DNA of 64,000 nt from an uncultured delta proteobacterium (GTDB lineage: Bacteria; Desulfobacterota; Binatia; HRBIN30; BPIQ01), in contig CAVXGR010000018.1 of the NCBI GenBank assembly GCA_963761335.1, forward strand, positions 544,001-608,000. The letters run 5' to 3'. Under the pieces are notes generated by a model. The model was given only the letters and a program-made list of their open reading frames with translations. It searched no databases and was not told the origin of the DNA. This document shows, piece after piece, positions 33,746 through 55,778 of the stretch (positions are counted from its first letter, which is position 1; each line of letters begins with the position of its first letter). The translations under genes were made by a program, and so were the position numbers.

Positions 33746-34188
33746 CGTCCCACCCGGCAGTGGGCGATGACACAGTCCGCGACAGGCGCCGGCGGCGAAC
33801 CGGGGCGCAGCTCCCAAGTCCGCGTGATGAGCTCCGCCTGGAGCGCGCCGGGACCGGCATGGGTCTCGATGTAGCGAGTCAGATCCTCGAACTGATACTC
33901 GATGCCGCGCCGGTGAGCGCACCGAGCCGCGCTGCCCCGCAGGGGCTCGCTGCAGTCGAAGGAGCTGAAATCGGTGACCCGGTGCACCGCACCCCCAGCG
34001 TCGCGAATCAGAAGGTGACTCGCCTGTCTGCCCGGCAGCCGGGCATACATGGAGAAGGTGTCGAGCGGATAGAGCAGCGACGCCATCTGGTCCCCGAGCC
34101 GCATGTCGAAGCGCACCGCCCACGACAGGGCGACGTAGCCGAGGACGCAGAGCACTCCGAAACGAAGCTGCGAGGCGCGCGCGCTCAC
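33742..34188 (-). CDS. Small membrane-anchored protein, likely partner of the HTTM-like gene
   Basis: GTG start overlapping the upstream stop; TM helix then YPLDTFSMYA. Confidence 0.6.
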   Translation of the reverse strand: MSARASQLRFGVLCVLGYVALSWAVRFDMRLGDQMASLLYPLDTFSMYARLPGRQASHLLIRDAGGAVHRVTDFSSFDCSEPLRGSAARCAHRRGIEYQFEDLTRYIETHAGPGALQAELITRTWELRPGSPPAPVADCVIAHCRVGR

Positions 34189-35333: not shown

Positions 35334-35474
35334 GGTTCTGTGCTCATTCTGCGGTCGCGAGAGCGATCCGACAGGCAGGCTAGTCGCTACGGCAACGGCG
35401 AGCAAGGATTGCGAAGGCTCGGCCCCGAGCTTTTCCTCTGGAAATGGCGCGCCGCCTGCGCGAGACTTCCGAGG

Positions 35475-39349: not shown

Positions 39350-40354
39350 TCACAGCCCGTACCACTTTCGCCGCAGGGGCGTCAACTTGGGGTTTGTCGT
39401 CCGGGTGCTGGTCGTCTGCGCCCGACGCGCCGGGTAGGCTCCCGGGTGACCCTCCCGAAAGCGGCGGCCCAGTGGGTCGTCGCGTCGCGGCTGAGCGATT
39501 CCGGTCGCCCGGCTGGTCGGGGTCATCCGTTCGCCGGCGCCATTGATCCACGATCTCTCGGAGCTCTGCAGCTCGCGCAGCAGCTGCGGCCGCTGGCGCA
39601 GAAGGGCGATTGCCTCGGGCTGCGGAAGAGCGCGGTGGAGCAGGGCTCGGTACCTCTGCAGACGGGCGCGCCACTGTGCCGGCGAGAGGGTGGTCCTGGT
39701 CGGAGGCGGGCAGGGCACCTGCTGGCCGAGCAGCATGATCATCAAACCCTCGTAGTTGAAAGCCGGGTCGCCCGTCGCACAGCGACGATTGCCGCTTTCG
39801 ACCCACGGGCCACAGGTGGAGTAGTGATCGAGCAGGGGCTGCAGGCCGGATACATCCACCGAAGCGCGACAGTCTCGCCAGAAGCGCGTCTCGCTCTTGC
39901 GGTTGAACTTGTAATGCACGCTGAGAAACCACCGCAGGTAGTCCCAGTGGGCGCCGAGCGCCTCGTTGGCGAAGGAGCGGTCGGACGGCCGATTTCCCGA
40001 CTGCAGCCCGCCGATGAGATAGGCGATCTCGACAATGACCATGTGGAGGGCGGTGGACTCGAGCGGCTCGACGAACCCGTAGGCATTGCCCAGGGCAACC
40101 GTGTTGCCCTTCCAGAAATCCCGGTGGCGGCCGCTGCGGAACTGCGGGGGGACCCGATAGGAGAATGAGTACCTGCCCGGCAGACCCCAATCGAACTTGA
40201 TGCCCAGTTTCCAGGTGGGCCGCACCTCGCGGTACAGGTCGACGATATCGATGCCGAGCTGCCGGTGTAGAAATGGCGGCATCAGGGTGGTGGTTGCTTC
40301 GCCGACGCCGACAACCTTTCGAGCCTCAAGATCTCGACGGTCCTCCGGCATCAT
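39350..40354 (-). pseudogene. Internally deleted tryptophan-halogenase-family (flavin-dependent) gene
   Basis: VGVGEAT, TWKLGIKFDW, FRSGRH, VALGNAYGFVEPLESTAL present; no GxGxxG, no WxWxIP; central region absent. Confidence 0.8.
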
Positions 40355-41816
40355 GAATCCCTTCACTGATGTCTCGAGGTGCTGTGGTTGCCCAGCGCGC
40401 CAGGATTTCGGCCGTGCGCGAGTCGGTCTCGTTCGCCAGGAGCTCGAACAGTCGCCGCGAGACGGCCATGTGCTCCTTGCACTCGAATGAATGCGGGCGC
40501 TGCCCGAAGAGATCTCCCCGGGTGGCAAAGCTGTGCACGGGGTCGATGCCGCAGAAGGGCTTGTTCCAGCAGTCGGCGCACATCGGCTGCGCGTCGAGGA
40601 GGGAAGCCGCGGCAATGGCGCGCACGGTGGGGTGCTGCAGCACCTCGGCCAGGGTCAGGGTGCGCACATCGCCGATCGCGAAGATCGGATCGCCGGTGAA
40701 GTCGATCAGCCGTGCCTCCTCGCAGGGAAAGACGCGTCCATCGGCATCGTAGGCGAGCTCGGACGTTCCAGCTGCGGCTGGAGACTGGATGTCGCACACT
40801 CCAGGGTCTTCCGAGGTGAGGATGCGAGTCGCGAAGATCCGTGCGGTACCCTCGACGATGTCGACGCCCTGGCGGTTGAGCTCGAGGATGTAATCCAGGG
40901 CGCGCCGATAGAAGTCGAGGTACTCCTCAGCGGAGTAGCCGATCTCCGACCAGACGTCGCCGGAGATGCCGAGAGGATTGAGAGGTCGCAGGTAGATCGC
41001 GCCGAGTCCCCGGGCCACGTACTCGTCCACCAGCCCTTGCGGTTCCTCGAGGGTTCGCCGAGTTACATTGGCGCGCGCCTCGATCGCCCGGATGCGAGAA
41101 TCCTGGCCGCTCTCCACAGACTGGCGCTGAAAGTAATCGATCCAGCGAATCACCTCGGCATGGGTGCTGCCGCCGATCCACCGGCGATTCCAATCGTGAA
41201 TGCCCGCCGGTCCGTCGAGATCCGTCCGCACGCGGACGTCGTTGGCGATCAGCCACTCGGCAGACTCCGCGGTCATGGCGGTGAGATTGGTCACCAGTCG
41301 GAAGGCCAGCGTCTTGCCGGCCGTCTGCATGTTGCGCGAGCGCGCCAGATCCAGCAGATGGCGCAGCACGTCGAAGCTCGCCAGGGGCTCGCCGTCGCCG
41401 GCGCGGAGCTCGAAGGTGATCGACGGCGAAGTGCTCTGCAGAGCTACCTCGGCCACTTGCGCGGCAGTCTCCGGGCTCATGTCGACGGCTGTTCCTTCGC
41501 CGCTCCGGCGAAGGTTGACGACGTGCAGATGCGGCCCGCGACCGACGTGGCGATTGCGCCGCGCCACCCGGTCGGCGAAGGCGTCGAGGTCGAGCCCGTC
41601 GCGCAGGAAGCCCATGCGCTTGAACTCCTCAAACCGGGAATGACCTTCGGCAACGCGTCCGGCGAGCAGCTCATCCAGCTCCGCCTCGCTCAGAAGCGCC
41701 CAGTCGCCGGCGTCGTTGGTGACCAGGATCTTGCCGGCGACGCGTCCCCAGCGGAAGAATCCGAGCCGGTCCTCAGCGAGATCCTGGCGCGACAGCGTCA
41801 GGCTGCGTCGGTCCAC
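40326..41816 (-). CDS. HxsB-like paralog lacking the radical-SAM CxxxCxxC motif
   Basis: Colinear with 55771..57321 (LVTNDAGDW, GPHLH, DMSPE, LVTNL, DLDGP, LDYILELNRQG, CADCWNKPFCG), but the HRCNHGCQYC segment is missing. Confidence 0.85.
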   Translation of the reverse strand: MDRRSLTLSRQDLAEDRLGFFRWGRVAGKILVTNDAGDWALLSEAELDELLAGRVAEGHSRFEEFKRMGFLRDGLDLDAFADRVARRNRHVGRGPHLHVVNLRRSGEGTAVDMSPETAAQVAEVALQSTSPSITFELRAGDGEPLASFDVLRHLLDLARSRNMQTAGKTLAFRLVTNLTAMTAESAEWLIANDVRVRTDLDGPAGIHDWNRRWIGGSTHAEVIRWIDYFQRQSVESGQDSRIRAIEARANVTRRTLEEPQGLVDEYVARGLGAIYLRPLNPLGISGDVWSEIGYSAEEYLDFYRRALDYILELNRQGVDIVEGTARIFATRILTSEDPGVCDIQSPAAAGTSELAYDADGRVFPCEEARLIDFTGDPIFAIGDVRTLTLAEVLQHPTVRAIAAASLLDAQPMCADCWNKPFCGIDPVHSFATRGDLFGQRPHSFECKEHMAVSRRLFELLANETDSRTAEILARWATTAPRDISEGIHDAGGPSRS

Positions 41817-42058
41817 TAACTCTCCTCCGCCAGAGCCGCCTGACGCATTCGCGAAATGGTCTCGTGCAAGACGTGATTGCAGAAGGCGTTGGCTACCATC
41901 TCGGCATCATCTTCGGCAACGCCGGAGATGATGGTCTCGATGGCGTCGGCGGCGGCAGTCACTTCGATCTGGGCGTGCTCGGCGTAGGCCGCCGCGGCGG
42001 CGTCGACGGCCTCAGGCAGGTATAGCGATCGGTCGAAGGCGATGCGCTTGGTCATCAC
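41816..42058 (-). CDS. HxsD-like small protein
   Basis: FDRSLYLPEAVDAAAAAY...NAFCNHVL; paralog of 55524..55778. Confidence 0.75.
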   Translation of the reverse strand: MMTKRIAFDRSLYLPEAVDAAAAAYAEHAQIEVTAAADAIETIISGVAEDDAEMVANAFCNHVLHETISRMRQAALAEES

Positions 42059-42540
42059 TCCGTTTCCGGATCCTTCTTCGGCCCGGGCTCCTCGGTGGCG
42101 CCGCCGTGCTTCTCCTCCCATGGGACCATGATCTCCAGCGGGTCCTCGAGCAGCTCTTCGGCCTCCAGCTCGGCCAGCAGGTCGTCGACGGAGGGTGCCG
42201 AGGCGGCGGCGCGAAGCGCAGCCGCCGTGTAGTAGTCGCGAATATGCGTGGTCGCCTGGGAGAGGCGCAGGCGGGTGGCCTGCGACAGAAGCTCGTTGGC
42301 GAACTCACCGGCGAGGGCGTCCAGCTCCGCGGGTGTTGCAGGGGTCCGCGAGGTCAGCCTCGCGGTCACCACTTGCGGCTTCGGCCTCGACAGATAGACG
42401 AAGCACTTCTCGACGAACAGGTAGCAGGCGCCGTAGATGGCGTCGAGAGGATAGATGCTCTCGTCGACCTCGAAGGAGATCTGGTCAGGTCCCAGAGAGA
42501 AGCCGAGGCGAGACTGCTGCTCGGCGTCGGTCGCGGACAC
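42055..42540 (-). CDS. hxsD: His-Xaa-Ser system protein HxsD
   Basis: VDESIYPLDAIYGACYLF...LAGEFANELL...T..IRD; C-terminal LEDPLEIMVPWEEK; paralog of 55072..55527. Confidence 0.8.
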   Translation of the reverse strand: MSATDAEQQSRLGFSLGPDQISFEVDESIYPLDAIYGACYLFVEKCFVYLSRPKPQVVTARLTSRTPATPAELDALAGEFANELLSQATRLRLSQATTHIRDYYTAAALRAAASAPSVDDLLAELEAEELLEDPLEIMVPWEEKHGGATEEPGPKKDPETE

Positions 42541-42544: not shown

Positions 42545-43201
42545 CTACCTCAACCTCCGATCCACGGGACCCGAGAACAGGCGCAGGCGCTCCGACTGCG
42601 GCATCAGCGCCGCCATAAGAGGCCTGTTCTTCCACTTGGTTTCGTTGCGGGCGAGCACGTGGGCCAAGCGCGCAACCGCTTGGGCCAATCCTTCTTCCGT
42701 GGGCAGGTCTCCTCGTCCGCCATTCATGACCACGAGATCGAGACCCTTCGTGTGGACCAAGCCCTGCGGACGCCCATCGTTGCGGCAGAGATGGACGCGG
42801 TGTTCTCGACCCCGCGGATTCACCAGGGTCAGCACGCAGGTGCCGTCAACGACTCCGGTCAGGCCTGCGACGCGCCACCCATATGCCACCAATGATCCCT
42901 TGGCGAGTGGCCGAAGCAGCTCCCAGGGAGGCGGCGCGCCGAGGGTGCTCGCCGGCCCGGCGTCGACGACAGCGGGCTGCGGATCTACGGCCTTTCGAGG
43001 GTCGCCGACTGGCTCTGGAGCTGGAACGATCGCCTCCGTGGCGGCGGTCGCCGCTTGGATGGATCCCTCTTGATCCAGGGCAGAGCCGGTGACTGGCTCG
43101 GCGCGGCGTGCTGAGGCAAAGCTGGTCCGTGCCAGCCCCGCGGCCCACATCATGGCCGTACCGGCTGCGAGCCTTCCGACCAAATCACGTCGCGACAGCA
43201 T
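42545..43201 (-). CDS. Tat-signal hypothetical protein (paralog of 45956..46543)
   Basis: MLSRRDLVGRLAAG; GWRVAGL...CRNDGRPQGLVHT..DLVVMNGGRGDLPTEEGLAQAV. Confidence 0.75.
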   Translation of the reverse strand: MLSRRDLVGRLAAGTAMMWAAGLARTSFASARRAEPVTGSALDQEGSIQAATAATEAIVPAPEPVGDPRKAVDPQPAVVDAGPASTLGAPPPWELLRPLAKGSLVAYGWRVAGLTGVVDGTCVLTLVNPRGREHRVHLCRNDGRPQGLVHTKGLDLVVMNGGRGDLPTEEGLAQAVARLAHVLARNETKWKNRPLMAALMPQSERLRLFSGPVDRRLR

Positions 43202-43270
43202 GCCGCACCTCCTTCCGTTCATCCAATATTTCTCCTGCTACCACAGGCATTTTACGTTCGCAACGCGACA

Positions 43271-45325
43271 TCAGTCGTTCTTGTCGAGGAACCTGTCGCC
43301 CTCGTTCTTCGTCGCCGGGGCCGTGTAGTCGGCAGTCCAGCACTCACCGTTGCTGTTGACGAGCTGAACCGTCATCATCGGATCCTGGTTGAGCGGGATC
43401 AGCGGCTCGAGGCTGGCGAAGTCGAGGTTCAGACCCTTCGCCAGGACGACGAGCTTGGCGCTGGCGCTCCCCGCCTTCAGGCGGATGGTCTTGATGCCGC
43501 GCTGGGTCGAGTCCCTGTCCTTGTAGCGGAAGCCACTGACTCCGGTCGCCTTCCAGCACGGATGAGAGCCGCAGGTGCTGCTGCCCGGAATACCGGCGGT
43601 CAGCAAGCGGATCGGCGTGCCCGACGAGTAGTCGTATACGCAGAAGGAGTAGAAGGTCGAGGTGTTGACCGGGTCGCCGAAGTCGGGCGGCGAGGTGACG
43701 TCCCCGTACGATCGCACCGCCGACCAGGTCCACTTCAGCAGGTCCCTCTTGTCCGGGGACTTGTCGCGGATCAGCAGCAGCGACTTCTTCGGCTGTATCG
43801 TGATGTGGCACAGGTTCGCCGGCAGCGGCGTCAGGGCGCAGGGGTTGGGTGTCGGGGTCGCCGTGGGCGTCGGACTCGGAGTGGCGGTCGGGGTATCCGT
43901 CGGGGTCACGGTCGGCGTATTGGTCGGCGTGCTGGTCGGCGTATCCGTCGGCGTCACGGTCGGCGTATCCGTCGGCGTGCTGGTCGGCGTGTTGGTCGGC
44001 GTGCTGGTCGGCGTATCCGTCGGCGTGCTGGTCGGCGTTTCCGTCGGCGTGCTGGTCGGCGTATTCGTCGGCGTATTCGTCGGGGTGTTGGTCGGGGTGT
44101 TGGTCGGCGTGCTCGTCGGCGTGCTCGTCGGCGTATCCGTCGGCGTGCTCGTCGGCGTGTTGGTCGGCGTGCTCGTCGGCGTGCTCGTCGGCGTGCTCGT
44201 CGGCGTGCTCGTGGACGTCGGCGTATTGGTCGGGGTGCTCGTCGGTGTCCGCGTCGGCGTTTCCGTCGGCGTATCGGTCGGCGTGCTCGTCGGCGTCACC
44301 GTCGGCGTATTGGTGCTGGTCGGTGTCCTCGTCGGGGTGCTCGTGGACGTCGGCGTGTTGGTCGGCGTGCTCGTCGGCGTGCTCGTCGGCGTACTCGTCG
44401 GCGTGTTGGTTGGCGTGCGGGTCGGTGTCTGCGTCGGCGTGTTGGTCACCGTCGGCGTGCGTGTCGGGGTGCTGGTCGGCGTCTGCGTCGGCGTGCAGGC
44501 CGGGTTGAAATCGGCCGGGCACGAGGCGCTCGAGCCCGTGCAGGTCTCGGCGACGTCACAGGCGCCGGCGTCGGGCCGGCAGACCTGACCGCTGCCGCGG
44601 AAGGTGCAGCTGCTGGTGCAGCAAGAGGTCGAGCTGCCGTTCGAGCCGCCGAGGTCGCACTGCTCGGCGCTGTTGTTCGTGTCGGTCACGCCGTCGCCGC
44701 AGTCCGAGTAGTAGAAGGCGACGTCGACGCTGCTGTAGTCGGAGGCGCCTGACGACGGTGTGTGTGTGTTGTTGTAGTTGGTCAGGGCGTAGTCGAGAGA
44801 GAAGGTCGGGGCGCTGGCTTTGACATCGACCCGGAACGTGAAGGAGGTGCCGCTGGTGAGCTGGAAGAGGTAGCGGATGTCGCCATAGGTGCCGCTGTCG
44901 GCGGGGCTGCCGCCGGCGGCGATCGTCGATGCGGAGCCGGAGACTCGGGTGATGACCAGCTGGTTGCTCACCGTTTGCGACCCGTTGATCTGGTCGGCGA
45001 CGCTGGTCGAGCTGGTGTAGGTGATCGACGTGGAGTTGCTGGTCGAGTACTTGAAGATGGCGCTCCCCGAGGGGGCGGAGCCCGTCATGGTGTTGCCGTT
45101 CACATTCGAGGCCGCCCGGATGCCGAAGTACACGTTGGAGTGCGAGCCGAGGCTCACTCCGGAGCAGGTGACCGTGGCGCCGCCGCTGGAGCTGGGCACG
45201 CCGCTGACGCTGCAGGAGCCGCCCCCTGGGAGGCTGTACGTCGGGCCGCCGGTGATCACCAGCGCCGAGGCGCTGCTGGCGACGCCGAATAGAATGAGCG
45301 CCGCAAGGATTGCACCACGCTGCAT
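43271..45325 (-). CDS. Secreted Ser/Thr-rich protein with Cys-rich repeat, long TPT[S/N/D] linker and conserved C-terminal domain
   Basis: GGAGG RBS before ATG 45325; signal peptide; CGDG...EQCDLG; about 200 aa of PT repeats; C-terminal domain like that of 6565..8280. Confidence 0.8.
43848..44495 (-). repeat. Coding 12-bp tandem repeat (Thr-Pro-Thr-Xaa linker)
   Basis: Imperfect gtcggcgtgctc/gtcggcgtatcc units. Confidence 0.9.
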
Positions 45326-45468
45326 CGTCCACCTCCGCCGTGGGTTGTGAAGCGAGCTCGAAGAGATGCGCACCGCAACGGAATCCGCGGCTGATCTTCC
45401 CCCGTTTGGCCGAAATAACGTCATCAAGGCGCCTCCGCTAGCGCTGCGGTGCTGTTTGCACCAGGGTG

Positions 45469-45858
45469 TCACCACGATCCGTGCGAGCCGTGACTGCCAT
45501 GAGACCCGTGACTCCCGTGGGACCCGTGGCTGCCGTGCGAGCCGTGGCTTCCATGTGAACCGTGGCTTCCATGCGAGCCGTGGCTGCCGTGCGAGCCGTG
45601 GCTGCCGTGTGAGCCATGGCTGCCGTGCGAGCCGTGGCTGCCGTGCGAGCCGTGGCTGCCGTGCGAGCCGTGCGAGGCGTGCGACATGTGCTGCGCCAGC
45701 ATCATGCTTTCATTGCTGGGGTCGGTCCGCAGGGCCTGAGCCGCTGCCGCAGGATCGACGGCACCGACCGGTTTCACCGCCTGGCGGGCCTCGTCGCGGC
45801 TGAGAAAATCCAATGGCGTCTTCCGCAATGAGGGAAGCGCGTTCTTCTTCTGGCTCAT
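45469..45858 (-). CDS. hxsA: His-Xaa-Ser repeat precursor peptide (HxsA-like): 56-aa leader + HMS-HAS-(HGS)22-W
   Basis: 24 in-frame H-x-S triplets (45475-45690); AAGGAGGG RBS upstream; located among hxsB/C/D-like genes. Confidence 0.9.
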
Positions 45859-45955: not shown

Positions 45956-46543
45956 TCATCGCAACCTCGCCCCACTGGCAGCGGCAAATCGCTCGAGGCG
46001 CTCCGCGTGGGACAACAGCGCCGAGGCGAGCTGCCGCTGTCGGTTCGCCTCGTTGGCCGCGAGCACGCGCCCCACAGCGGCCACCGCCTGGGCCAATCCC
46101 TCTTCCGTGGGTAGATCTCCTCTGCCGCCGTTCATCACCACCAGATCGAATCGTCGGGTATGCACGAGACCTTGGGGCCGACCGTCGTTGCGGCAGATGT
46201 GCACGCGGTGCGAGCGCCCGCGCCGGTTCTCCAGCGCCAGCACGCAGGAGCCGTCTTCCTCTCCGCTCAAGCCAGCCACCCGCCAGCCATGGGCCACTGC
46301 GGACCCGATTCCCAGCGGCTGCAACAGATCCAAGGGTGGGCTGCTCGGCGGCGCGGGCTCGGCCGCGGACATGGCGGCCTCCGCTGCCGGAGCTGTGGCC
46401 GACTGCTCTTCACCGCTCTGCGCCAATGCGGAAACACCAATATCGTCGCGAGCGGATTTCGCCTCCGCCCGCCCGATGTTGGCAGACCACGCCACGGCAG
46501 CACCGGCCGCCAGCTTTCCGACGAACGCCCGTCGGGACAGCAT
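45956..46543 (-). CDS. Tat-signal hypothetical protein (paralog of 42545..43201)
   Basis: MLSRRAFVGKLAAGAAVAW...AEA; same conserved domain as its paralog. Confidence 0.75.
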   Translation of the reverse strand: MLSRRAFVGKLAAGAAVAWSANIGRAEAKSARDDIGVSALAQSGEEQSATAPAAEAAMSAAEPAPPSSPPLDLLQPLGIGSAVAHGWRVAGLSGEEDGSCVLALENRRGRSHRVHICRNDGRPQGLVHTRRFDLVVMNGGRGDLPTEEGLAQAVAAVGRVLAANEANRQRQLASALLSHAERLERFAAASGARLR

Positions 46544-46912
46544 GCAGTTTTCCCCCCCTACAACTAGACAGGAACTAAAGGTTCGTAACGGGCGTATCAC
46601 AAGGCCGACGGACGAGTAAAGAAAAATTTTCGCGCGACCCCGGGAATTCTGTCGTCCGTCGAGAATGCGCCTCGGCGTGGCGCACCGCTGTCCGCCGGCC
46701 CTTTGCGTTCGAAAAAAATCTGGCGTCTCTTCAGGTGTCGTGATACGCGTTTCCTCTGACACGAGACGAATCTCTTACGTCTGTTGACAAGTGCGCGATA
46801 GAAAGGGATTCAGCAGGGGGGGCAAGAATCGCGCGAAGGACGGCGTACGGCTCTCGGCCGGCGACCGCGAACGAAGCAGCAGGACTGATCCCATTCGTGC
46901 AGAGAATCTTCT
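46544..46912. promoter_or_regulatory. Divergent intergenic/promoter region between the two Hxs arms
   Basis: Relatively AT-rich, between divergent operons; TTGACA at 46784, but no convincing -10 at canonical spacing. Confidence 0.4.
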
Positions 46913-48769
46913 TTGATGCACACTGATCCCTCGATCGACGCGGTTGGTGGTCTGACCCAGTTGAGCGGCGAGGCCGCTCGACGTCTGCTCTCACCCAGCC
47001 GCGGGGCGGAGGTGGATCTGCGCCTCTCGTTGGTGCGCCAGCGCGCCATTCTGCCCTGGCGGTTTGTGCCGCCCGATGCTCGCGACGATCTGCGGTCGAG
47101 CGAGGTGATCGACGCTGCCCGGGCGGCCGGTGCACATGCGGGAGCCTTTCTCATTGGCGGCGGGGATCCCCTGCGGCGTCCCGATCTGTGGGATCTGCTG
47201 GCGGAGTTGGTGCGCCTCAGGCCGAATGATCTCGGACTCTGCATTTCCGGTCGCGGGCTGACGGCGCCGGTGATCGAGCGCCTGCGCGCCGCCGGCGTGC
47301 GGCGGCTGCACGTCCCCTTTCACTGCGCTCGGCAAGATGCCCACGATTGGTTGGTCGGCCAGCCGGGCGCCTTGAAGATGGCTCATCGCGCCATCCGCGC
47401 CGCTGCCGAAGCGGAGCTGCCGGTGGTCGCCGAGATCGTCCTGACGCGACCGACGGTGTTGCATCTGGCCGAGACGGTCGAGGTGCTGTCCCGCATCGGC
47501 GCCGGCGCCGTCTGTGTCCGGCGGCTGGCGGCGGAGGACACCGACGGCACCGCCTTCGTGCCGCTCTCTCCGCGCCTGTCCTTGGTGGGCGAGAGCCTCG
47601 AGCAGGCGGCGGCGGTGGCCCTGCGGCGCCGCCTACGGCTGCGTCTGCGCGACCTGCCCCTGTGTGTCGCGCCGCGGCTCCGGCGACTGTTCGCCGCCGC
47701 CGAGAGCGAGGCATGGGTGATGGCCGACGGCACCCTGAGCCGGCGCGCCGCGGCGGCACTGGGGTGCCCCGACTGCCCCGGACCTCCGCGCTGCGCCGGC
47801 GCGCCGAGCGACTACACGGCGCGCTTCGGCTGGGAGGAGTTCGCCGACGTGAGCGTCGCCGCGGCGCGGCTCAGAGAGAACGTCGAGGAGCAGCGGGCGC
47901 CGCATCTGTCGGCACCGATGGTCTTCGCCTGGCGCGGTCCACATCGAGTGCGCTGCGACGCCTGCGGCGACGGGGCGGAGGCGCAGTCCGGATACGAATC
48001 GACGCGAGCGGTGCGCGCCAGGCTGGTGCAGGCGGCGCGCTATCGGCCGTCGCTGCTGCGCTTGGTGGGGGCGGATCTTCTCGCCCACCCGCAGGCGGCG
48101 GCGCTGATCTTCGATGCGGTGCGGCTGTTCCCGCGCGTCGAGGTCGTCGGGGAGGCCAGCGCCGTGGTCGAATGGTCCGATCTCGACCTGCGCCGCTTGA
48201 AGGACCTGAAGCGCGTCGACGTCCCATTGTATGGGCCCGATGCGGCGACCCACGACTCCCACTGCGGTATTCCCGGAGCCTTCGCTGCGATGCTGCGCGG
48301 CGTCCAGCGTCTGGGCGCCCAGGAGATCCGGGTTGGCGCCTACGCCGTCCTTCATGACGCGCATCTGCTCGAGCGGTTCGCCGCAGCTTGGGACGCCGGT
48401 AGCTTGCCGGGCGAGCCCCGCTTTCGCCTCTCGGCCCGCGGCGCGTCTCTCGATGAGCTGGCGGAGGCGGCGCGCCGTTTGCCGAGCGGCCCGGCGCGCG
48501 CCGCGGTGGCGGCGCTCTTGCCCCGCTGCCTGTGGGACGATTCCGCCGCCGGCAGCGGCGGTCAGGTCCTGTTGGTTCAACGGCCGGAGCCGCAGCGGGT
48601 CGTCCACTGTGGCAGGAGCACTTCCTATCATTCATGCGGATCGGATCCGATCGGGGATTTTGAGACATGCCGTGAGGGCGCCGGTGCGTGCGCCGGCTCG
48701 GGATGTGTCGGAACCGCTGTCGGGTGGCGGACTGCGGCGAGGTCAGAGCGATGGAACGTGAGGATCTGA
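46913..48769 (+). CDS. Tandem degenerate HxsC-like radical-SAM-fold protein (no complete CxxxCxxC)
   Basis: Domain 1: GGGDPLRRPDL, HDWLVGQPGA, DLPLC, CPDC....RCAG. Domain 2: RCDAC, VGADLLAHP, LYGPDAATHDSHCGIPGAF, LPRC. Confidence 0.7.
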   Translation: MMHTDPSIDAVGGLTQLSGEAARRLLSPSRGAEVDLRLSLVRQRAILPWRFVPPDARDDLRSSEVIDAARAAGAHAGAFLIGGGDPLRRPDLWDLLAELVRLRPNDLGLCISGRGLTAPVIERLRAAGVRRLHVPFHCARQDAHDWLVGQPGALKMAHRAIRAAAEAELPVVAEIVLTRPTVLHLAETVEVLSRIGAGAVCVRRLAAEDTDGTAFVPLSPRLSLVGESLEQAAAVALRRRLRLRLRDLPLCVAPRLRRLFAAAESEAWVMADGTLSRRAAAALGCPDCPGPPRCAGAPSDYTARFGWEEFADVSVAAARLRENVEEQRAPHLSAPMVFAWRGPHRVRCDACGDGAEAQSGYESTRAVRARLVQAARYRPSLLRLVGADLLAHPQAAALIFDAVRLFPRVEVVGEASAVVEWSDLDLRRLKDLKRVDVPLYGPDAATHDSHCGIPGAFAAMLRGVQRLGAQEIRVGAYAVLHDAHLLERFAAAWDAGSLPGEPRFRLSARGASLDELAEAARRLPSGPARAAVAALLPRCLWDDSAAGSGGQVLLVQRPEPQRVVHCGRSTSYHSCGSDPIGDFETCREGAGACAGSGCVGTAVGWRTAARSERWNVRI

Positions 48770-50631
48770 AGACGAGAATGCTGGCGCGCGAGCGCGTCGC
48801 CAATGTCCGCAAGCACTGGGTGCGCCTGGTGACCGCTTGTAACAGCCGCTGTATCTTCTGTCTGGACACCGACACGCCGCGCAACGTGTACATCCCCGAG
48901 GACGAGGTGCGGCGCGAGATTCTGCGCGGGCGGGAGCAGCTCAAGGCCGACAAGGTGATCCTCTCCGGGGGAGAGGGCTCGATCCATCCGAAGTTCGTCG
49001 ACTTCGTCGCCTACGCCAAGGAGGTCGGCTACAACCGCGTGCAGACGGTCACCAACGGCGTGATGTTCGCCCGCCGCGACTTCTATGCCGCGGCGGTGGG
49101 CGCCGGGCTCGGCGAGATCACCTTCAGCCTGCACGGGCACACGGCCGAGCTGCACGACCGTCTCACGGGGACGCCGGGCGCCTTCCGCAAGCTCATCAAA
49201 GGAATGGTGCGCGCCGTGCGCGAGGGGCGGATCATCGTCAACGTCGACGTCTGCATCAACAAGCAGAACGTCGCTTACATCGACCAGATCGTCGATCTCT
49301 GCCTCTCGGTGGGGGTGCACGAGTTCGACCTGCTGCACGTCATTCCCCAGGGGGTGGCCTTCGAGAACCGCAACGACCTCTTCTACGATCCGGTCGAGTA
49401 CCTGCCGCGCCTGCAGAAGGTGTTTCGTCTGAACCGCCACCCGAATGTGGTGGTGTGGACGAACCGCTTTCCGGTGGAGTTCCTCGAGGGGCTGGAGGAT
49501 CTCATTCAGGATCCGCACAAGATGCTCGACGAGGTCAACGGCCGCCGCTTCCAGGTCCGCCGCTACCTGGACGAAGGAGTGCCCCTGGAGTGCCGAGAGA
49601 AAGAGCGCTGCCAGTACTGCTTCATCGAGCCCTTCTGCAACACCGCCGATCGAGTCATCGAGCGGCAGAACCGCGCCAGCTGGGAGGTGTGGTGGATCGG
49701 CGAGCCCGGAGAGGCGCAGCGGGCGGAGATCGCCGCGCTGACCCCCGAGCAGCTGCCCTTCGGATGCGGCTACGTCGGCGTCGAGGTCGACGATCTGGCC
49801 GATCTCGAGGGGCTGGCGGTGTCCCCCGAGATCGGCATCTACGCCAAGGCGAGGCAGGTTTCGCGCCTCGTCGACCGCAAGGCGGTGTCCAATCCTCTCC
49901 TCGTCTGCGTTGCCGAAGCGGAGGCACTCGAGGTTCTGCTGTCGGCCGGCGAGATTCCGCCGGGCGTCGAGATCGAGATCGAGCTCAACCGGCAGACGGC
50001 GCCCTGGCTTCTGGCGCACCGCGAGCGCCTCGCCGGGGTTCTCTCCCGCCTGCGGCTCCATCAGCCGAGCCACGAGTTCCTGAAAGACGCCGTCGACAAC
50101 GACGTGCGCAATCCCGCCGCGTTCTTCGCCCAGCTCGCCCTGCCGGTGCGGGTCAGCGGACTCCCCGCCTGTCTGGCGCCGGGAGCGCAGCTGAGCGAGG
50201 CGCCCAAGATTCTGCACAGGACACTCTTCGACGCCGAGACCGGGCGCGTGGCGATCCGCGAGCTGGCGCGCGAGCACGTGGTGCGCGGTTACTGGGGCAA
50301 GTCGGTTCGCTGCCGAGACTGCGTGGTGAACGACCGCTGCGACGGTGCCCACATCAACTTCCTCCGCGATCAGGGATTCGCGCAGCTGGATCCTCTGCGT
50401 CAGGGCGAATGGGCCGAGGCGGCGGCGGCGCAGATGCTGCGCCTGCGACCCGAGCCGCCGGCGCGGCTGCGCGACGGACGGCCGAGCCTTCCGGTGGCGC
50501 CGAGCCTGCCCGGGTTCGCCCCGCCACGGCCGGCTCCCGTCGAGCCGCTGATCGAGCTCGGGCAGCGCGTGCGCGAGGAGCGCGAGCGGCGCCGCCTGCG
50601 CGCCCACCCGGAGGCTCCGCCGCCGGCATAA
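48751..50631 (+). CDS. HxsC-like radical SAM protein with extended Cys-rich C-terminus
   Basis: ACNSRCIFC, SGGE, TVTNG, FSLHG.TAELHD; CREKERCQYCFIEPFC; CRDCVVNDRCDG. Confidence 0.85.
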   Translation: MEREDLKTRMLARERVANVRKHWVRLVTACNSRCIFCLDTDTPRNVYIPEDEVRREILRGREQLKADKVILSGGEGSIHPKFVDFVAYAKEVGYNRVQTVTNGVMFARRDFYAAAVGAGLGEITFSLHGHTAELHDRLTGTPGAFRKLIKGMVRAVREGRIIVNVDVCINKQNVAYIDQIVDLCLSVGVHEFDLLHVIPQGVAFENRNDLFYDPVEYLPRLQKVFRLNRHPNVVVWTNRFPVEFLEGLEDLIQDPHKMLDEVNGRRFQVRRYLDEGVPLECREKERCQYCFIEPFCNTADRVIERQNRASWEVWWIGEPGEAQRAEIAALTPEQLPFGCGYVGVEVDDLADLEGLAVSPEIGIYAKARQVSRLVDRKAVSNPLLVCVAEAEALEVLLSAGEIPPGVEIEIELNRQTAPWLLAHRERLAGVLSRLRLHQPSHEFLKDAVDNDVRNPAAFFAQLALPVRVSGLPACLAPGAQLSEAPKILHRTLFDAETGRVAIRELAREHVVRGYWGKSVRCRDCVVNDRCDGAHINFLRDQGFAQLDPLRQGEWAEAAAAQMLRLRPEPPARLRDGRPSLPVAPSLPGFAPPRPAPVEPLIELGQRVREERERRRLRAHPEAPPPA

Positions 50632-50653: not shown

Positions 50654-51691
50654 ATGGCGAATCTGGGCTATCTGCAGCTCACCCGCAATTGCTATCAGAA
50701 GTGCCAGTTCTGTAGTAATCCGCCGACCGGGGTGCATCTCAACGAGGAGGAGATGCGCGCCAACATCGACCGCCTGGTCGAGCTCGGCTACGACGGCGTG
50801 ATCCTCACCGGCGGCGAGCCGAGCATCTCGGAGCTGCTCTTGCCGGCGCTGGCCTACGCCCGCGAGCGCGACCTCTTCAGCCGCATGATCACCAACGGTC
50901 AGAGGCTCGCCGACCGGGACTTCTTCCGCCGCTGCGTCGACGCCGGGCTGACCCACATCCACGTGTCCCTGCACAGCTATCGGCGCGAGGTCCACGACTT
51001 CATCACCCAGTACCGCGGCGCCTGGGATCTCCTGGTGGAGTGTCTGAGCCACGTGCCGGAGATGGGCATCACCTGCGACATCAACACGGTGATCAACGTG
51101 TACAACTGCGATCACCTCCACGAGAACGTGCAGTGGATCTGCGAGAACTTCCCGTTCATCCGGCACTTCGTGTGGAACAACATGGACCCCGACGGCAATC
51201 GCGCCGAGGAGAATCCCGACTGCATTCCCCGGCACTACGAGTTCCAGGTGTCGCTGGAGCGCGCCATGGAGTACCTGGTGAGCAGCGGGCGGACCTTCCG
51301 CGCCGAGCGCGTGCCGCTGTGCTACATGCGCCACTTCGCCTGGGCCTCCACCGAGGCCCGCAAGATCATCAAGGAGGAGGAGCGCTGCATCAAGTTCCTC
51401 GATGCCAAGGGCTTCATCCACCAGAAGGAGTTTCTGCACGGCAAGGGCACCGCCTGCGACGTCTGTCGCTTCGACACGATCTGCGCGGGCATGTTCTCGA
51501 TGGCCAAGACCTACGACGAGCGCGAGCTGTCGCCGATCTTCGACGATCCGCTCGATGTGATCGTCCAGGTGCTGGGACGGAGGCCGTCCCCGGACCTGCT
51601 CGAGAGACTGCAGAAGCGGCGCGGCCGGCGCTCGAAGACGGAGCAGCCGTCGGTGGAAAAGAGGGAACAGGCGCTCTCGCGGGCGCTGTAG
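50654..51691 (+). CDS. HxsC-like radical SAM protein
   Basis: NCYQKCQFC, TGGEP, ITNG, VSLHS; VPLCYM; CDVCRFDTICAG. Confidence 0.85.
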   Translation: MANLGYLQLTRNCYQKCQFCSNPPTGVHLNEEEMRANIDRLVELGYDGVILTGGEPSISELLLPALAYARERDLFSRMITNGQRLADRDFFRRCVDAGLTHIHVSLHSYRREVHDFITQYRGAWDLLVECLSHVPEMGITCDINTVINVYNCDHLHENVQWICENFPFIRHFVWNNMDPDGNRAEENPDCIPRHYEFQVSLERAMEYLVSSGRTFRAERVPLCYMRHFAWASTEARKIIKEEERCIKFLDAKGFIHQKEFLHGKGTACDVCRFDTICAGMFSMAKTYDERELSPIFDDPLDVIVQVLGRRPSPDLLERLQKRRGRRSKTEQPSVEKREQALSRAL

Positions 51692-51694: not shown

Positions 51695-54007
51695 ATGCCC
51701 CGCTTGCTCTTCGTCAACCCGCCCCTCGTCCTCGACGAGGACTTCATCGACTACCCGTACTTCGCCAATCACGGACTGCTCGCCTGCGCCGGGATGGCGG
51801 CGCGCGCCGGGGCGCAGGTGGACGTCTACGACGCCTTCGCGCAGCCCGCCTCGGGGCGCCACCGGCGGGCCGCAGGCGGCTTCGTTCTCGGCGTCGGGCA
51901 CGCCGACTTCATCGCCGGCCTGCCCGAGGGCGAGCCCGACGTGGTGGTGCTCGGCGCCTCCGTCTTCCTGCGCATCGAGGCGGCACACGCGGAGACGCGG
52001 GCGCTGATCGCGGCGCTCCGCCGGCGGTTCCCGGACGCCGTGCTGCTGCTCGCCGACGGCTACGTGGGCGGCCAGCACTACATGGACTACGATGGCGTAC
52101 GGGTGCTGGCGGAGTACGAGGAGCTGGATGCGATCCTCAAGTACCCCGGCGAGCGCCTCTTCGGCGACCCCGCGTATCTCGCCACACTCCGCGGCGCCAG
52201 AAGGGTACTGACGGAGGCAGGGGAGCGCGGCGCCGATCCCCTCGCATCGTTTTATATGCTCGATGCCATCGATCTGGGGAGCTTCGATCGCTTTCTCGAT
52301 CGCTGCTTCGCCGACGGGCTGTGGCAGGACACCTTCGGTGTCGGCAGCGGCACCCGCTCCTTTCTCACCAGCATGGGCTGCCCGCATCGCTGCATCTTCT
52401 GCACCAGCAATCCCGGCTGGCGGCGCAGCGGCCGCAAGCTCTACCAGCCGATCCCGCTGGCCCGCCTGAAGCACTGGGCCTTCCTGCTGCGCACCGCCTT
52501 CGGGGCGCGCAAGCTCATCGTTCTCGACGAGATGGTGAACGTGCGCCCGGACTTCGAGGCGCTGCTCACCGCCTTCAACGACCTCGATCTCTCCTACGAT
52601 TTCCCCAACGGCATGCGCGCCGACCATCTCAGCCGCGAGGCCGTCGCCCTCATGCGGGGACGCGTCAGCGTGGTCAGCATCTCGGCGGAGAGCGCCACGC
52701 AGGAGGATCTCGACGGCCCCATCGGCAAGGGCCAGAAGCTCGACGCCATCTTTCGGGCCGCCGCCTGGTGTCAGGAGATCGGTGTGCCCTTGATGATCCA
52801 CTACATCATCGGCTTTCCGTGGGAGACCCCGGCGCACATCACCGCGACCCTGGAGATGGCATGGGACCTCTATGAGCGCTACGGCGCCTGGCCCTCGATG
52901 CAGTTCGCGACGCCGATCCGCGGCACCGCGCTGCACGAGCAGTGCGCCTCGCTCGGGCTGATACCGCCGGAAGGCATCGATCTCAAGGACGGGGCTCTCT
53001 TCCAGCACCGCCCGTGCTACGAGCCGCCGCACTGCCCTCCCGGCTACGTCGCCAAGGCGCGCGCCGCCTTCGACATGAAGATGGCCGCCCGCGAGTCCCG
53101 CAAGCTGATCGTCAACATCACCTACAAGTGCGCCAACCGCTGCGTCTTCTGCGCCACCGGCGACCGCATCTCGGCGGCGCTCGACTGGGAGAAGATCGAG
53201 GGGATCCTCCGCCAGCATCGCCAGGAGGGGACGGATCTTCTCGACATCGACGGCGGCGAGCCGACCCTGCACCCGCGACTCCTCGACGCCGTCGCCCTGG
53301 CGCGGGATCTCGGCTACCGCGCCATCAACGTCACCAGCAACGGTCGCCTGCTGCGCGATCCGGCGGTCGCTCGCGGCCTTCTCGAGAGCGGCATCACGCA
53401 TCTGCTGATCTCGCTGCACGGGGCCACTGCCGCCGTGCACGACGCCGCGACCGATACGCCGGGAAGCTTCGAGCAGACGGTTGCCGGCATCGACAACGTC
53501 ATGGCCATGCGTCCGCCGCACGTCGACACGGGCATGAACGTCACCATCGTGCGCGACAACGTCGATCAGCTGATGCCGCTCGCCGCCCTGGCGGTGGAGA
53601 AGGGTTTTGCCAAGATCAACTTTCAGTTCACCACGCCGTTCGGCCGCGCCTACGAGGACGTGGTGCCGCCTCTCGAGGAGGCGGCGCGTGCGGTGATGCG
53701 GGTCATCGACCGCTACGCGGGCGAGATTCAGATCCACGTGATCAACGCCCAGTTCTGCGCCTTCCCCGGCTACGAGCAGTACGTCGTCGGCGATCTGCAG
53801 AAGCTCGGCCGCACCATGATCTTCGCCGCCGATCCGCGCTTTCCGGAGCAGGTGAACCTGTACCAGTGGCTGGGGGCCCGTCGCGAGAAGCGCGCCGTCT
53901 GCGGCCAGTGCCCATGGACGACCGCGTGCGAGGGCTTCCAGGTCTTCGCCCAGGAGAAGCCCGATATGCGCGTCGAGCGCGCCCGACCGAGCGTCGCGGT
54001 GGCCTGA
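51695..54007 (+). CDS. B12-binding radical SAM fused to a second, HxsC-like radical SAM domain
   Basis: N-terminal B12-binding-like domain; GCPHRCIFC...IIGFPWET; second motif KCANRCVFC, DGGEPT, SLHG; CGQCPWTTACEG. Confidence 0.88.
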   Translation: MPRLLFVNPPLVLDEDFIDYPYFANHGLLACAGMAARAGAQVDVYDAFAQPASGRHRRAAGGFVLGVGHADFIAGLPEGEPDVVVLGASVFLRIEAAHAETRALIAALRRRFPDAVLLLADGYVGGQHYMDYDGVRVLAEYEELDAILKYPGERLFGDPAYLATLRGARRVLTEAGERGADPLASFYMLDAIDLGSFDRFLDRCFADGLWQDTFGVGSGTRSFLTSMGCPHRCIFCTSNPGWRRSGRKLYQPIPLARLKHWAFLLRTAFGARKLIVLDEMVNVRPDFEALLTAFNDLDLSYDFPNGMRADHLSREAVALMRGRVSVVSISAESATQEDLDGPIGKGQKLDAIFRAAAWCQEIGVPLMIHYIIGFPWETPAHITATLEMAWDLYERYGAWPSMQFATPIRGTALHEQCASLGLIPPEGIDLKDGALFQHRPCYEPPHCPPGYVAKARAAFDMKMAARESRKLIVNITYKCANRCVFCATGDRISAALDWEKIEGILRQHRQEGTDLLDIDGGEPTLHPRLLDAVALARDLGYRAINVTSNGRLLRDPAVARGLLESGITHLLISLHGATAAVHDAATDTPGSFEQTVAGIDNVMAMRPPHVDTGMNVTIVRDNVDQLMPLAALAVEKGFAKINFQFTTPFGRAYEDVVPPLEEAARAVMRVIDRYAGEIQIHVINAQFCAFPGYEQYVVGDLQKLGRTMIFAADPRFPEQVNLYQWLGARREKRAVCGQCPWTTACEGFQVFAQEKPDMRVERARPSVAVA

Positions 54008-54009: not shown

Positions 54010-54942
54010 ATGGAGACGATCCAGCTGGGCGGGCAGTGGTTCGACTACGCCGACGTCCTCATCGACGTCATGTTCGGCTACGCCTGCAACGTCCAGTGCG
54101 ACTACTGCTCGATCACCGACGACATGCGCCGGGAGAACATGACGACGGCGTCGGTCATCGCGCAGCTCGCCGAGGCGCGGGCGCGCGGCGCCACCCGGGT
54201 CGCCTTTGGCGGCGGCGAGCCGACCATCCGGCGGAGCCTGTTGCCGCTGGCGCGCTGGTGCCGCGATCGCGGCTATCGCTCGATCAAGGTCGCCTCCAAC
54301 GGGCTCATGTACTCGTATCGCTCCTTCGCGGAGGAGGCGAGCGAGGCGGGCATCAACTCGTTCCACATCTCCTTCATGGCGCACACGCCCGAGCTCTACG
54401 AGAAGATCATGGGAAAGCCGGGGGCGCTGTCGCTGGTGACCGAGGGGCTCCGCAACCTGATCGCCCTGGGCCACAAGCCGGTCGGCGACCTGATCATCAA
54501 GAGCGACACCTGGATGCATCTCGCGGACATCGTCGAGCACTGGGCCGCTCTCGGTGTCGAGACCTTCAACCTGTGGTTGGTGTCGCTGTCGGATCGCAAC
54601 CGCGACAATCTCGACTCGCTGTTGCCGGTCAGCACCATGCGCGAGGGGATCGGCGCTGCCTTCGAGCGCGGCCGGAGCCTCGGGGTCACGGTTCTGTCGC
54701 GCCACATTCCGCGCTGCATGCTCCCCGGGTACGAGGATCAGGTCGCCGATCTGCGCGACGACAAGGTGCTGGTGGTGACGCCGCGCACCTCTTTCGCACT
54801 CTGGGAATCGAAGATCTCTCCCAACACCTACGCCGAGAAGTGCCAGGGCTGCCGCCACCAGCACGGCGTCTGCCTCGGGCTGCGCCAGGACTACCTGGAG
54901 CGCTACGGCGACGCCGAGGTGCAGCCGGAGTACGCGCAATGA
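54010..54942 (+). CDS. HxsC-like radical SAM protein
   Basis: ACNVQCDYC, GGGEPTIR, SNG; IPRCM; CQGCRHQHGVCLG. Confidence 0.85.
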   Translation: METIQLGGQWFDYADVLIDVMFGYACNVQCDYCSITDDMRRENMTTASVIAQLAEARARGATRVAFGGGEPTIRRSLLPLARWCRDRGYRSIKVASNGLMYSYRSFAEEASEAGINSFHISFMAHTPELYEKIMGKPGALSLVTEGLRNLIALGHKPVGDLIIKSDTWMHLADIVEHWAALGVETFNLWLVSLSDRNRDNLDSLLPVSTMREGIGAAFERGRSLGVTVLSRHIPRCMLPGYEDQVADLRDDKVLVVTPRTSFALWESKISPNTYAEKCQGCRHQHGVCLGLRQDYLERYGDAEVQPEYAQ

Positions 54943-55071: not shown

Positions 55072-55527
55072 ATGACTCACACCCGAATAGAAACCCTCGA
55101 CGCGCAGGGGTCGACGCTGACCCTGTCGCTCGACATCGGCCTGTATCCGCGCGACGTGCTCTACGCCGCCGCCTACGTGTTCCTCGACCGCGCCTACGTG
55201 CTCCTCGACCGCGATGGCTCGCGTTTCCTCGTGCACCTGCGGGGCAAGCAGCTCCTCGAAGAGGAGGCTCTGCGGGCCATGGCCGGCGAGTTCGAGAACG
55301 AGCTCCTCGCCCAGGCGCTGCGGCAGCGGGTGACCCGCACCAACCAGAGACTCATCGAGGACATCGCCTCCCTGGCGATCGCCGGTGCCGCCGGCGCCGC
55401 AGTGCACGGCGACGTCGCGTCCGACGACTCCGGGCTGATCGATGTCGACGCCCCCGGCGAGGACGGCTTTCTCGACGACCCCCTGGGCATTGCCGAGCCC
55501 TGGGAGTCCAAGAAGAAGGACGGGTGA
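55072..55527 (+). CDS. hxsD: His-Xaa-Ser system protein HxsD
   Basis: LDIGLYPRDVLYAAAYVFLDRAYV...AGEFENELL.Q.LR; FLDDPLGIAEPWE. Confidence 0.85.
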   Translation: MTHTRIETLDAQGSTLTLSLDIGLYPRDVLYAAAYVFLDRAYVLLDRDGSRFLVHLRGKQLLEEEALRAMAGEFENELLAQALRQRVTRTNQRLIEDIASLAIAGAAGAAVHGDVASDDSGLIDVDAPGEDGFLDDPLGIAEPWESKKKDG

Positions 55528-55778
55528 GCGCGATGTCTGCCGGCACCGCCGAGCCCGCCACCGTGAAGCTGCACTGCGCCCTGTACATGCGCGAGGCGAT
55601 CACGGACGCGGCGGCGACCTTTGCCGACTTCGCTTCGTTCGTCCTCCGCCTCGACGGCGATCACTTTCTCGTCGAGGTCAGCGACATCGATGCCGAGGTC
55701 GAGGGCGATGTGGTGGCGGAGTTCTGCAACTTCGCCCTGGCGCACACGGCGATGCGCCGCAAGAGCCAGCATGCTTGA
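55524..55778 (+). CDS. HxsD-like small protein
   Basis: LY..EAI..AA..F...AEFCNFAL; paralog of 41816..42058. Confidence 0.75.
   Translation: MSAMSAGTAEPATVKLHCALYMREAITDAAATFADFASFVLRLDGDHFLVEVSDIDAEVEGDVVAEFCNFALAHTAMRRKSQHA

Follow-up and report, generated by a model that had tools for sequence, protein, structure and literature searches.

The 64,000-nucleotide stretch of DNA analysed here (the window; contig CAVXGR010000018.1 of an uncultured delta proteobacterium, Binatia) carries a gene, HxsB', that encodes a full-length paralog of the radical S-adenosylmethionine (SAM) maturase HxsB without the catalytic CxxxCxxC motif. HxsB' is a conserved, radical-dead HxsB paralog belonging to a widespread and unnamed clade, and it is paired with an HxsC homolog, HxsC', that is dead as well. 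We consider it most likely, with a probability of about 0.55, that HxsB' is a functional member of this clade that serves as a non-catalytic adaptor or scaffold. The gene, its motif sites and its intact paralog are, in window positions:

40326..41816, minus strand: HxsB', 496 aa, GTG start and no internal stop; RRE-like, radical-SAM-barrel and SPASM domains, without CxxxCxxC
41484..41510, minus strand: RRSGEGTAV (residues 103-111), what remains of the loop opposite THRCNHGCQYCHSSIVGMERTDT of the paralog (pairwise and family alignments)
41385..41399, minus strand: G-D-G-E-P, residues 140-144, the GGEP SAM motif preceded by a 2-residue insertion
40479..40580, minus strand: auxiliary-cluster cysteines C413, C416, C422 and C446 (CxxCx5C ... 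C); Pfam SPASM 26.1 bits, above the cut-off of 21.5
55621..57321, plus strand: canonical motif-bearing HxsB; TIGR03978 506.1 bits, cut-off 370

The NCBIfam family TIGR03978 (HxsB) spans residues 20-476 of HxsB', which corresponds to positions 3-466 of a profile of 466 (E 5.9e-105), although the score of 351.7 bits stays below the curated cut-off that the canonical paralog passes. The G+C content at third codon positions is 0.80 in this frame. A BLASTP comparison with the intact HxsB gave 36% identity over 467 columns (E 2e-101), and in the pairwise alignment a 13-residue gap in HxsB' lies exactly opposite CNHGCQYC of the intact copy, HxsB' reading GPHLHVVNL-RRSGEG-------------TAVDMS and the intact HxsB reading GPTLHAFVLTHRCNHGCQYCHSSIVGMERTDTDMS. 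No CxxxCxxC was found anywhere in the open reading frame (ORF) of HxsB', and the loop from L102 to D112 holds no cysteine. The loop at the motif site measures 13 residues, compared with 27 in motif-bearing copies. The Pfam family PF04055 (Radical_SAM) reached 19.1 bits on HxsB', less than the gathering cut-off of 29.5, and this match begins at profile position 25, past the motif. Both of the motifs that we take to mark the SAM pocket, GGE(P) and DG(P), with positions taken from the anSME alignment, are present as G142-E143-P144 and D201-G202-P203. The four auxiliary-cluster cysteines align with cysteines of all five canonical HxsB rows.

Since the three ligand cysteines are lost and no substitute triad is present, HxsB' should be unable to bind the radical SAM [4Fe-4S] cluster, and therefore unable to cleave SAM. 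Judged from its sequence, the loss of all three ligands argues against a SAM-dependent radical maturation of HxsA by HxsB'. An earlier note on this DNA had described an open, full-length HxsB paralog of 496 aa in which GGEP had become GDGEP, the C-terminal cysteine cluster was kept and the catalytic motif was excised. The frame is indeed free of stops and matches TIGR03978 from end to end, the BLASTP alignment sets RAGDGEP against Q--GGEP of the intact copy, and C413, C416, C422 and C446 are accompanied by a further cysteine, C365, in the C-terminal part. The excision holds for the window copy with its shortened loop, but not for most motif-less relatives, where the loop has about 22 residues and the cysteines are substituted. 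The excision in the window copy is thus probably a later step than the loss of the motif.

A search of 40 related genomes with the HxsB' protein returned two classes of match, each present in 17 of the genomes: clade 2, with 50-66% identity to HxsB', and canonical HxsB, with 34-38%. The window genome holds only two HxsB-family genes. Among 19 genome-derived clade-2 copies (16 genomes) 15 are without any motif cysteine and four keep CxxxCxxC; a twentieth copy (G019), split in three frames, was left unscored, and L014, which counts among the 15, belongs to G029, an unpublished genome. Full-length open orthologs of HxsB' were found in 13 related genomes. Two genomes carry two motif-less copies each, G033 (L019 and L034) and G037 (L029, 6297-7784 and 10381-11742), the latter 2.6 kb apart on one contig. 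A large protein collection contributed 416 matches at E<=1e-30; of the best 119 apart from the target, at 56-66% identity, 21 have the motif and 98 do not. The earlier note had proposed to look for motif-less orthologs in other genomes, and they are evidently common.

Several of the motif-less proteins are labelled by their source as 'His-Xaa-Ser system radical SAM maturase HxsB'. TIGR03978 was the best NCBIfam family for all 79 sequences of our alignment A1, and a check of these 79 revealed no dedicated NCBIfam model for the motif-less clade. The named carriers of clade 2 are uncultured metagenome-assembled genomes labelled Candidatus Binatia, 'delta proteobacterium', Polyangiaceae or Thermodesulfobacteriota. 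An even sample of the phylum, comprising 200 further genomes, gave no match at E<=1e-110. As sampled, clade 2 is confined to the order of the window genome, a sample of 200 genomes not being one that shows absence elsewhere.

The history of the motif was followed in a FastTree tree of 144 rows and an IQ-TREE tree of 60 rows, with the motif and insertion columns excluded. Clade 2 is separated from canonical HxsB in both trees (support 100, starred), and motif-bearing rows are scattered near the base of clade 2 in both. Parsimony gave five changes of motif state, at least two of which are forced by starred branches; most clearly, the motif-bearing L025 falls into one nested group with P0065 and P0100, neither of which has the motif (support 99-100, starred). 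Constraining the motif-less rows to one clade cost 98.9 log-likelihood units, with a P value of 0.0135 in the approximately unbiased (AU) test. The radical SAM motif has been lost independently at least two times in clade 2, with the caution that a shortening by 3-5 residues at the third cysteine is common to all motif-less rows and, together with alignment uncertainty, fits fewer losses than the tree. All but one of the 114 motif-less rows (113) carry the 2-residue insertion before GGEP, and 10 of the 25 motif-bearing clade-2 rows share it, suggesting that it predates the loss of the motif and is not inactivating by itself.

Selection was measured as omega under the GY+F3X4 codon model, with a likelihood-ratio test against omega=1. 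For 16 motif-less genes omega was 0.115, with twice the log-likelihood difference (2dlnL) at 2625.7, and for the 15 that remain without G029 it was 0.109. The window gene together with L010 and L011 (n=3) gave 0.088 (2dlnL 509). Omega=1 was rejected for the 16 genes as well as for this trio. Canonical HxsB (n=5) and the motif-bearing clade-2 genes (n=4) gave 0.041 and 0.045, respectively. The window gene forms the longest branch of the three-sequence tree, suggesting that its lineage has not been neutral for long. Pairwise dN/dS by the method of Nei and Gojobori (NG86) was higher, with a median of 0.39 over 120 pairs and 0.24-0.51 for pairs including the window gene; with synonymous sites saturated and codon bias strong, these values are a rough upper bound, and the GY+F3X4 estimates replace them.

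The reference for conservation along the protein was a set of 112 columns in which the motif-bearing rows of clade 2 agree to 90% or more and canonical HxsB has the identical residue. In motif-less rows 82 of these are retained (at 85% or more), 24 are retained in part and six are lost, three of them being the motif cysteines. The window HxsB' retains 89 of the 106 conserved columns outside the motif. Median retention of conserved columns is 88.7% in motif-less and 99% in motif-bearing rows. C413, C416 and C422 are each present in 111 of the 114 motif-less rows and C446 in 108, whereas most of the extra SPASM cysteines were lost together with the motif. A new cysteine at column 466, three residues before C446, is found in 102 of the 114. 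Mean pairwise identities for the RRE-like, barrel and SPASM regions were 0.67, 0.61 and 0.67 in motif-less rows as against 0.67, 0.74 and 0.73 in motif-bearing rows, to be read as a relative comparison since the groups differ in depth. It is thus the catalytic barrel, rather than the N-domain, that is relaxed.

HxsB' has been kept under purifying selection, and a pseudo-enzyme rather than a decaying pseudogene is supported. This was also the view of the earlier note, and its suggested dN/dS check, once run, came out in its favour for the 16 motif-less copies and for the window trio, as did the retained columns, the auxiliary cysteines and the conserved RRE-like domain. The conserved N-domain and auxiliary cysteines would fit a role in binding, as a scaffold or possibly in electron relay.

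The retention of the SAM-pocket motifs leaves room for a different reading, with SAM binding or cluster-independent chemistry. N177, T198, D201-G202-P203, H207 and R211 are kept in 93-100% of motif-less rows and GEP in 95-99% (the latter range also for E143 and P144), although the cluster is gone. HxsB' could then be a neofunctionalised enzyme that has lost its radical chemistry while the old active site is still catalytic, either by non-radical use of SAM, by binding of SAM, S-adenosylhomocysteine (SAH) or 5'-deoxyadenosine, or by redox or Lewis-acid chemistry of the auxiliary [4Fe-4S] cluster on HxsA4, the His-Gly-Ser repeat precursor encoded nearby. The four retained auxiliary cysteines and the one gained at column 466 are in favour of such an enzyme, an omega of 0.115 is low for a mere scaffold, and the repeated independent loss suggests that the cluster-less state is favoured. 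On the other side, the barrel is the most relaxed of the domains, and the cysteine just before TxLDGP (column 219; R197 in the window copy), present in five of five canonical and 22 of 25 motif-bearing rows, is found in only nine of the 114 motif-less rows and replaced in 105. Furthermore, the conserved pocket motifs may be structural, and no cluster-less enzyme of the radical SAM fold with such chemistry was found in the open-access literature. We regard a neofunctionalised enzyme as unlikely.

An AlphaFold2 (AF2) model of HxsB', made with the 79-row alignment, has a mean predicted local distance difference test score (pLDDT) of 91.2 and a predicted template-modelling score (pTM) of 0.90. It consists of three N-terminal strands and three helices (22-87), a barrel in which strands and helices alternate, and a C-terminal domain made up of helices. 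The first of these is:

41556..41753, minus strand: N-terminal RRE-like domain, residues 22-87; DSSP strands 22-26, 29-33 and 39-42, helices 44-51, 62-68 and 77-87

The best profile matches among solved structures were CteB (5wgg, E 3.2e-27) and anSME (4k36/4k37). At the top of the Foldseek results stood CteB, anSME, TigE, ChlB, SuiB, SkfB and PqqE, all at a probability of 1.00; viperin reached 1.00 too, and the HxsB' model has the partial TIM-barrel fold of the radical SAM superfamily. CteB matched the model with a Foldseek E of 1.7e-17 and a template-modelling (TM) score of 0.60-0.66 over the full length. Because the top profile and Foldseek matches are such proteins, the architecture of HxsB' is that of an RRE-radical SAM-SPASM peptide maturase. 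CteB, SuiB and TigE, with which the model aligns in fold over the full length, carry an RRE, and the N-domain of HxsB' is probably RRE-like, going by the likeness of its modelled fold to CteB and SuiB. A complex prediction for HxsB' with the HxsD-like protein encoded upstream, run without controls, scored 0.16 against a mark of 0.32, which speaks neither for nor against this pair.

The neighbourhood of HxsB' contains the following genes:

41816..42055, minus strand: HxsD-like, 79 aa; NF038315 58.1 bits, cut-off 41; its stop overlaps the HxsB' start (TAGTG)
42055..42540, minus strand: HxsD, 161 aa; TIGR03976 50.5 bits, cut-off 50; its stop overlaps the HxsD-like start (TGATG)
42545..43222, minus strand: twin-arginine-signal (TAT) protein, 225 aa, first gene of a conserved four-gene cassette
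43271..45475, minus strand: secreted Pro/Thr-repeat protein, 734 aa, with a disintegrin-like Cys-rich domain (Pfam Disintegrin 39.4 bits)
45469..45858, minus strand: HxsA4 precursor, 129 aa, with a long His-Gly-Ser repeat run; NF038313 143.7 bits, cut-off 55
45956..46762, minus strand: second TAT protein, paralog of 42545-43222, with tblastn cross-hits onto the same genes elsewhere
46913..48769, plus strand: HxsC', 618 aa, HxsC-like, with two radical-SAM-like halves and without CxxxCxxC
48688..50631, plus strand: HxsC4-like radical SAM protein, motif intact
50654..51691, plus strand: HxsC-like radical SAM protein, motif intact
51695..54007, plus strand: fusion of two radical SAM domains (B12-binding-type and HxsC4-like), both with motifs
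54010..54942, plus strand: further HxsC-like radical SAM protein of about 310 aa, with an approximate start and CxxxCxxC in frame
55072..55527, plus strand: second HxsD; TIGR03976 55.2 bits

Directly upstream of HxsB' in other genomes are orthologs of the HxsD-like gene, and orthologs of HxsD take the same position as here, with 58-82% identity. The whole cassette of TAT protein, HxsD, HxsD-like and HxsB' recurs in L029, L031, L033, L036 and L037, and in L032 and L034 without a detected TAT protein. The motif-bearing clade-2 gene L039 follows the same pair of HxsD and HxsD-like genes as HxsB', suggesting that the cassette predates the loss of the motif. HxsA4 lies 3.6 kb upstream of HxsB' on the same strand. 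The HxsC-like genes are divergent in the window and co-linear in 10 related loci; these 10, out of 23 loci from named records, have HxsC' next after HxsB' on one strand and active radical SAM genes after that, in one case with an intact flavin halogenase between HxsB' and HxsC'. The order HxsD-(HxsD-like)-HxsB'-HxsC' mirrors the canonical HxsD-HxsB-HxsC.

HxsC' resembles HxsB' in what it has lost. Its Pfam Radical_SAM match begins at profile position 30, TIGR03977 reaches 58.8 bits, well below the cut-off, the motif site reads 'LPWR', and the second half retains only a CxxC. CxxxCxxC is absent throughout HxsC' in all 11 copies compared (the window and 10 orthologs). Taken together, the synteny points to a module in which HxsD, the HxsD-like protein and the motif-less HxsC' would act with HxsB'.

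Other features of the locus were recorded alongside. Neither of the two TAT proteins matched a family (for 42545..43222, in Pfam and NCBIfam), and the best protein atlas score for the TAT-signal protein, 0.75, was uninformative. In related loci the two TAT-signal paralogs are each paired with an HxsA4 gene, and L054 (44-6847) has three such pairs in a row; the system may have additional substrates, or else partners, in these TAT proteins. The 734-aa protein combines a long (T/P)-rich repeat region with a conserved C-terminal domain and follows HxsA4 both here and in related loci. In orthologs of 54010..54942 the alignment to the long ORF begins near its residue 377. At 39350-40615 (minus strand; likely start 40351/40354) lies the remnant of a flavin-dependent, tryptophan-type halogenase, whose frame overlaps the 3' end of HxsB' and which, set beside an intact ortholog of 551 aa (L049, 9447-11102), is missing some 200 residues from its interior as well as the N-terminal portion with GxGxxG. 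Throughout the 64 kb there are 14 CxxxCxxC matches in 13 long open frames, an unusual density of radical SAM genes that extends beyond the Hxs cluster (e.g. 8570-9610, 13252-15168, 19550-22521, 24739-27960 and 34185-36554). PADLOC gave no meaningful match for HxsB', HxsC', HxsD, HxsD-like, HxsA4 or the TAT protein, HXS apparently being outside its 2023 library; apart from a Cas8a at chance level, its only matches were weak ones to viperin, made by radical SAM genes with the motif. In public sequencing runs the locus 40326-42540 occurs with small shares in six DNA runs from soil and marsh metagenomes, and no RNA run is listed.

The earlier note had placed HxsB' in a heterodimer with active HxsB, and this was weighed in the form of an obligate pair with the canonical copy, to which HxsB' would supply leader binding or electrons. 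Each of the 13 related genomes with a motif-less copy does have canonical HxsB, as has the window genome, and at many loci both genes belong to one co-linear array. This co-occurrence does not discriminate, however, because canonical HxsB is found in nearly all genomes with any clade-2 copy, including two of the three that have only a motif-bearing one, and it is also present in G032, which is without clade 2. Canonical HxsB furthermore has an RRE-like region of its own and its own HxsD directly upstream, whereas the translational coupling of HxsB' is to another HxsD with its HxsD-like partner, and its neighbour is HxsC' rather than HxsB. An obligate heterodimer seems rather improbable.

We return to HxsB' as a non-catalytic adaptor or scaffold, which would be a subunit of an HxsA4-type maturation system with multiple radical SAM enzymes. 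The scaffold role, the occupancy of the auxiliary cluster and the identity of the partners are what we infer. HxsB' would bind the His-Gly-Ser repeat precursor HxsA4, the co-encoded HxsD and HxsD-like proteins, or both, with its conserved N-domain, barrel and auxiliary-cluster domain as binding surfaces. Acting jointly with the likewise motif-less HxsC', it might then retain the substrate or offer it to the system's five motif-bearing radical SAM enzymes. A bolder version, tentative and to us no better than possible, is that the whole HxsD-HxsB-HxsC module (HxsD, HxsD-like, HxsB' and HxsC') has turned catalytically dead under selection and become a substrate-holding or templating platform, possibly binding SAM and one auxiliary Fe-S cluster, that orders the five active radical SAM enzymes on the His-Gly-Ser protein. 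We found no motif-less or pseudo radical SAM proteins of such kind, and no pseudoenzyme scaffold in radical SAM peptide maturation, in the open-access literature and bioRxiv.

Several observations weigh against a functional scaffold. The retention of GEP and DGP is not predicted by a pure scaffold role, and the RRE-like label has no support from sequence families, HxsB' having no match at E<=0.01 to the Pfam family of the RiPP recognition element (RRE; PqqD-like, PF05402). The omega of the motif-less genes is 2.5-3 times that of the active paralogs, and NG86 dN for the same genome pairs is 3-5 times higher in the motif-less copies. As for the window copy itself, it has a serine (S443) in place of the column-466 cysteine, ranks 13th lowest of 114 in retention of conserved columns and sits on a long end branch (0.34-0.39). 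Its locus has been rearranged, since the cassette is inverted relative to HxsC' and the adjoining halogenase is reduced to a remnant. In four of the 23 related loci (L039, L052, L054 and L059) HxsB' is split across two to three frames, reflecting either real decay or indel errors of long reads; for L059 sequencing indels are the likelier cause, because neighbouring motif-bearing genes are split too. The earlier note had set against its own reading the case that close orthologs keep the motif and that this copy is under relaxed selection. Of this, one half is seen: 21 of the best 119 homologs do keep the motif, and selection is relaxed by the factor given above, yet it is still strongly purifying.

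Another reading is that HxsB' is a decaying pseudogene or neutral relic, with a frame left open by the accident of high G+C. Long spurious ORFs are common in the window (68% G+C), and the degraded halogenase, the long branch and the split relatives would all agree with decay. The rejection of omega=1 in both gene sets, the 89 conserved residues, the open orthologs in 13 genomes, the confident AF2 model and the preserved translational coupling to the upstream gene make it very improbable. Non-canonical radical SAM enzymes inspire the idea that HxsB' is still a radical SAM enzyme whose cluster ligands are other residues of its own chain or are supplied in trans by HxsD or HxsD-like, an idea that is hardly credible given that the only conserved cysteine columns in motif-less rows are the four auxiliary ones and column 466. 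Ligands in trans were rejected as candidates: HxsD has one invariant cysteine (25 sequences), and the single cysteine of HxsD-like is replaced by Ala or Ser in six of 16.

Radical SAM enzymes are normally annotated by homology alone, and many members of the motif-less clade are labelled HxsB in spite of having no catalytic cluster binding. A dead paralog paired with a dead HxsC, conserved and repeatedly evolved, would clearly exemplify how pseudoenzymes are recruited into maturation pathways of proteins or of peptides resembling ribosomally synthesised and post-translationally modified peptides (RiPPs). It would also offer a handle on the recognition and hand-over of repeat substrates in systems with multiple radical SAM enzymes. 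The HXS family has newly been tied to antiphage defence in enterobacteria, and the HxsA4 branch described here is an expanded one in uncultured soil bacteria (Candidatus Binatia and 'delta proteobacterium' records).

Among the closest known systems is that of E. coli, where HXS (HxsD-HxsB-HxsC-HxsA) was shown to be antiphage (Li et al., Nat Commun 2026, PMC13128918). According to that study, the order HxsD-HxsB-HxsC is found in 99.6% of HXS systems, HxsD binds HxsC, the association of HxsB with HxsC is not stable, and the active sites of both HxsB and HxsC are needed, substitutions in that of HxsB abolishing function (PMC13128918). No experimental work on Hxs beyond this paper was found in the open-access literature. 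HxsB' shares with canonical HxsB end-to-end homology and the same RRE-like, barrel and SPASM architecture, and it likewise lies behind hxsD and is clustered with genes for a His-Xaa-Ser repeat protein and HxsC-like proteins. It differs by the missing CxxxCxxC, by only 36% identity to its own paralog and by a family score under the cut-off. The window system also differs from the E. coli one in its HxsA4 precursor with His-Gly-Ser repeats and in its five further motif-bearing radical SAM genes. Since active-site substitutions abolish function there, HxsB' cannot do the job of E. coli HxsB in the same way, and because both active sites are required, the Binatia-type system must draw its radical chemistry from other radical SAM genes.

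Nearer to HxsB' are the motif-bearing members of clade 2 (e.g. P0003, P0005, L028 and L039), which have the same length, are 59-67% identical and are its nearest presumably active relatives. They keep CxxxCxxC, the cysteine before TxLDGP and partly the further SPASM cysteines (columns 369, 387 and 448), and retain 99% of the family-conserved columns compared with 84% in the window HxsB'. The solved maturases CteB (5wgg), TigE (8vpo), SuiB (5v1q), ChlB (9gm3) and anSME (4k36-4k39) are its best matches in sequence profile and fold. They are only 13-17% identical, all bind the radical SAM cluster, and HxsB' retains only one of their two SPASM cluster sites. A curated precedent in name is TIGR04347, 'pseudo-SAM/SPASM protein', a model that was seen among the matches of neighbouring genes. 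It is not among the 25 best of the 27 families matching HxsB', and no member of A1 matches it at E<=1e-20; the resemblance, one of name, thus appears to be convergent and not membership. A counterpart in concept is PqqD, a stand-alone RRE chaperone that acts as the non-catalytic, peptide-binding partner of the radical SAM enzyme PqqE and delivers the precursor to it. PqqD is an RRE of 90 aa, while HxsB' comprises all 496 aa of a dead enzyme, barrel and SPASM domain included.

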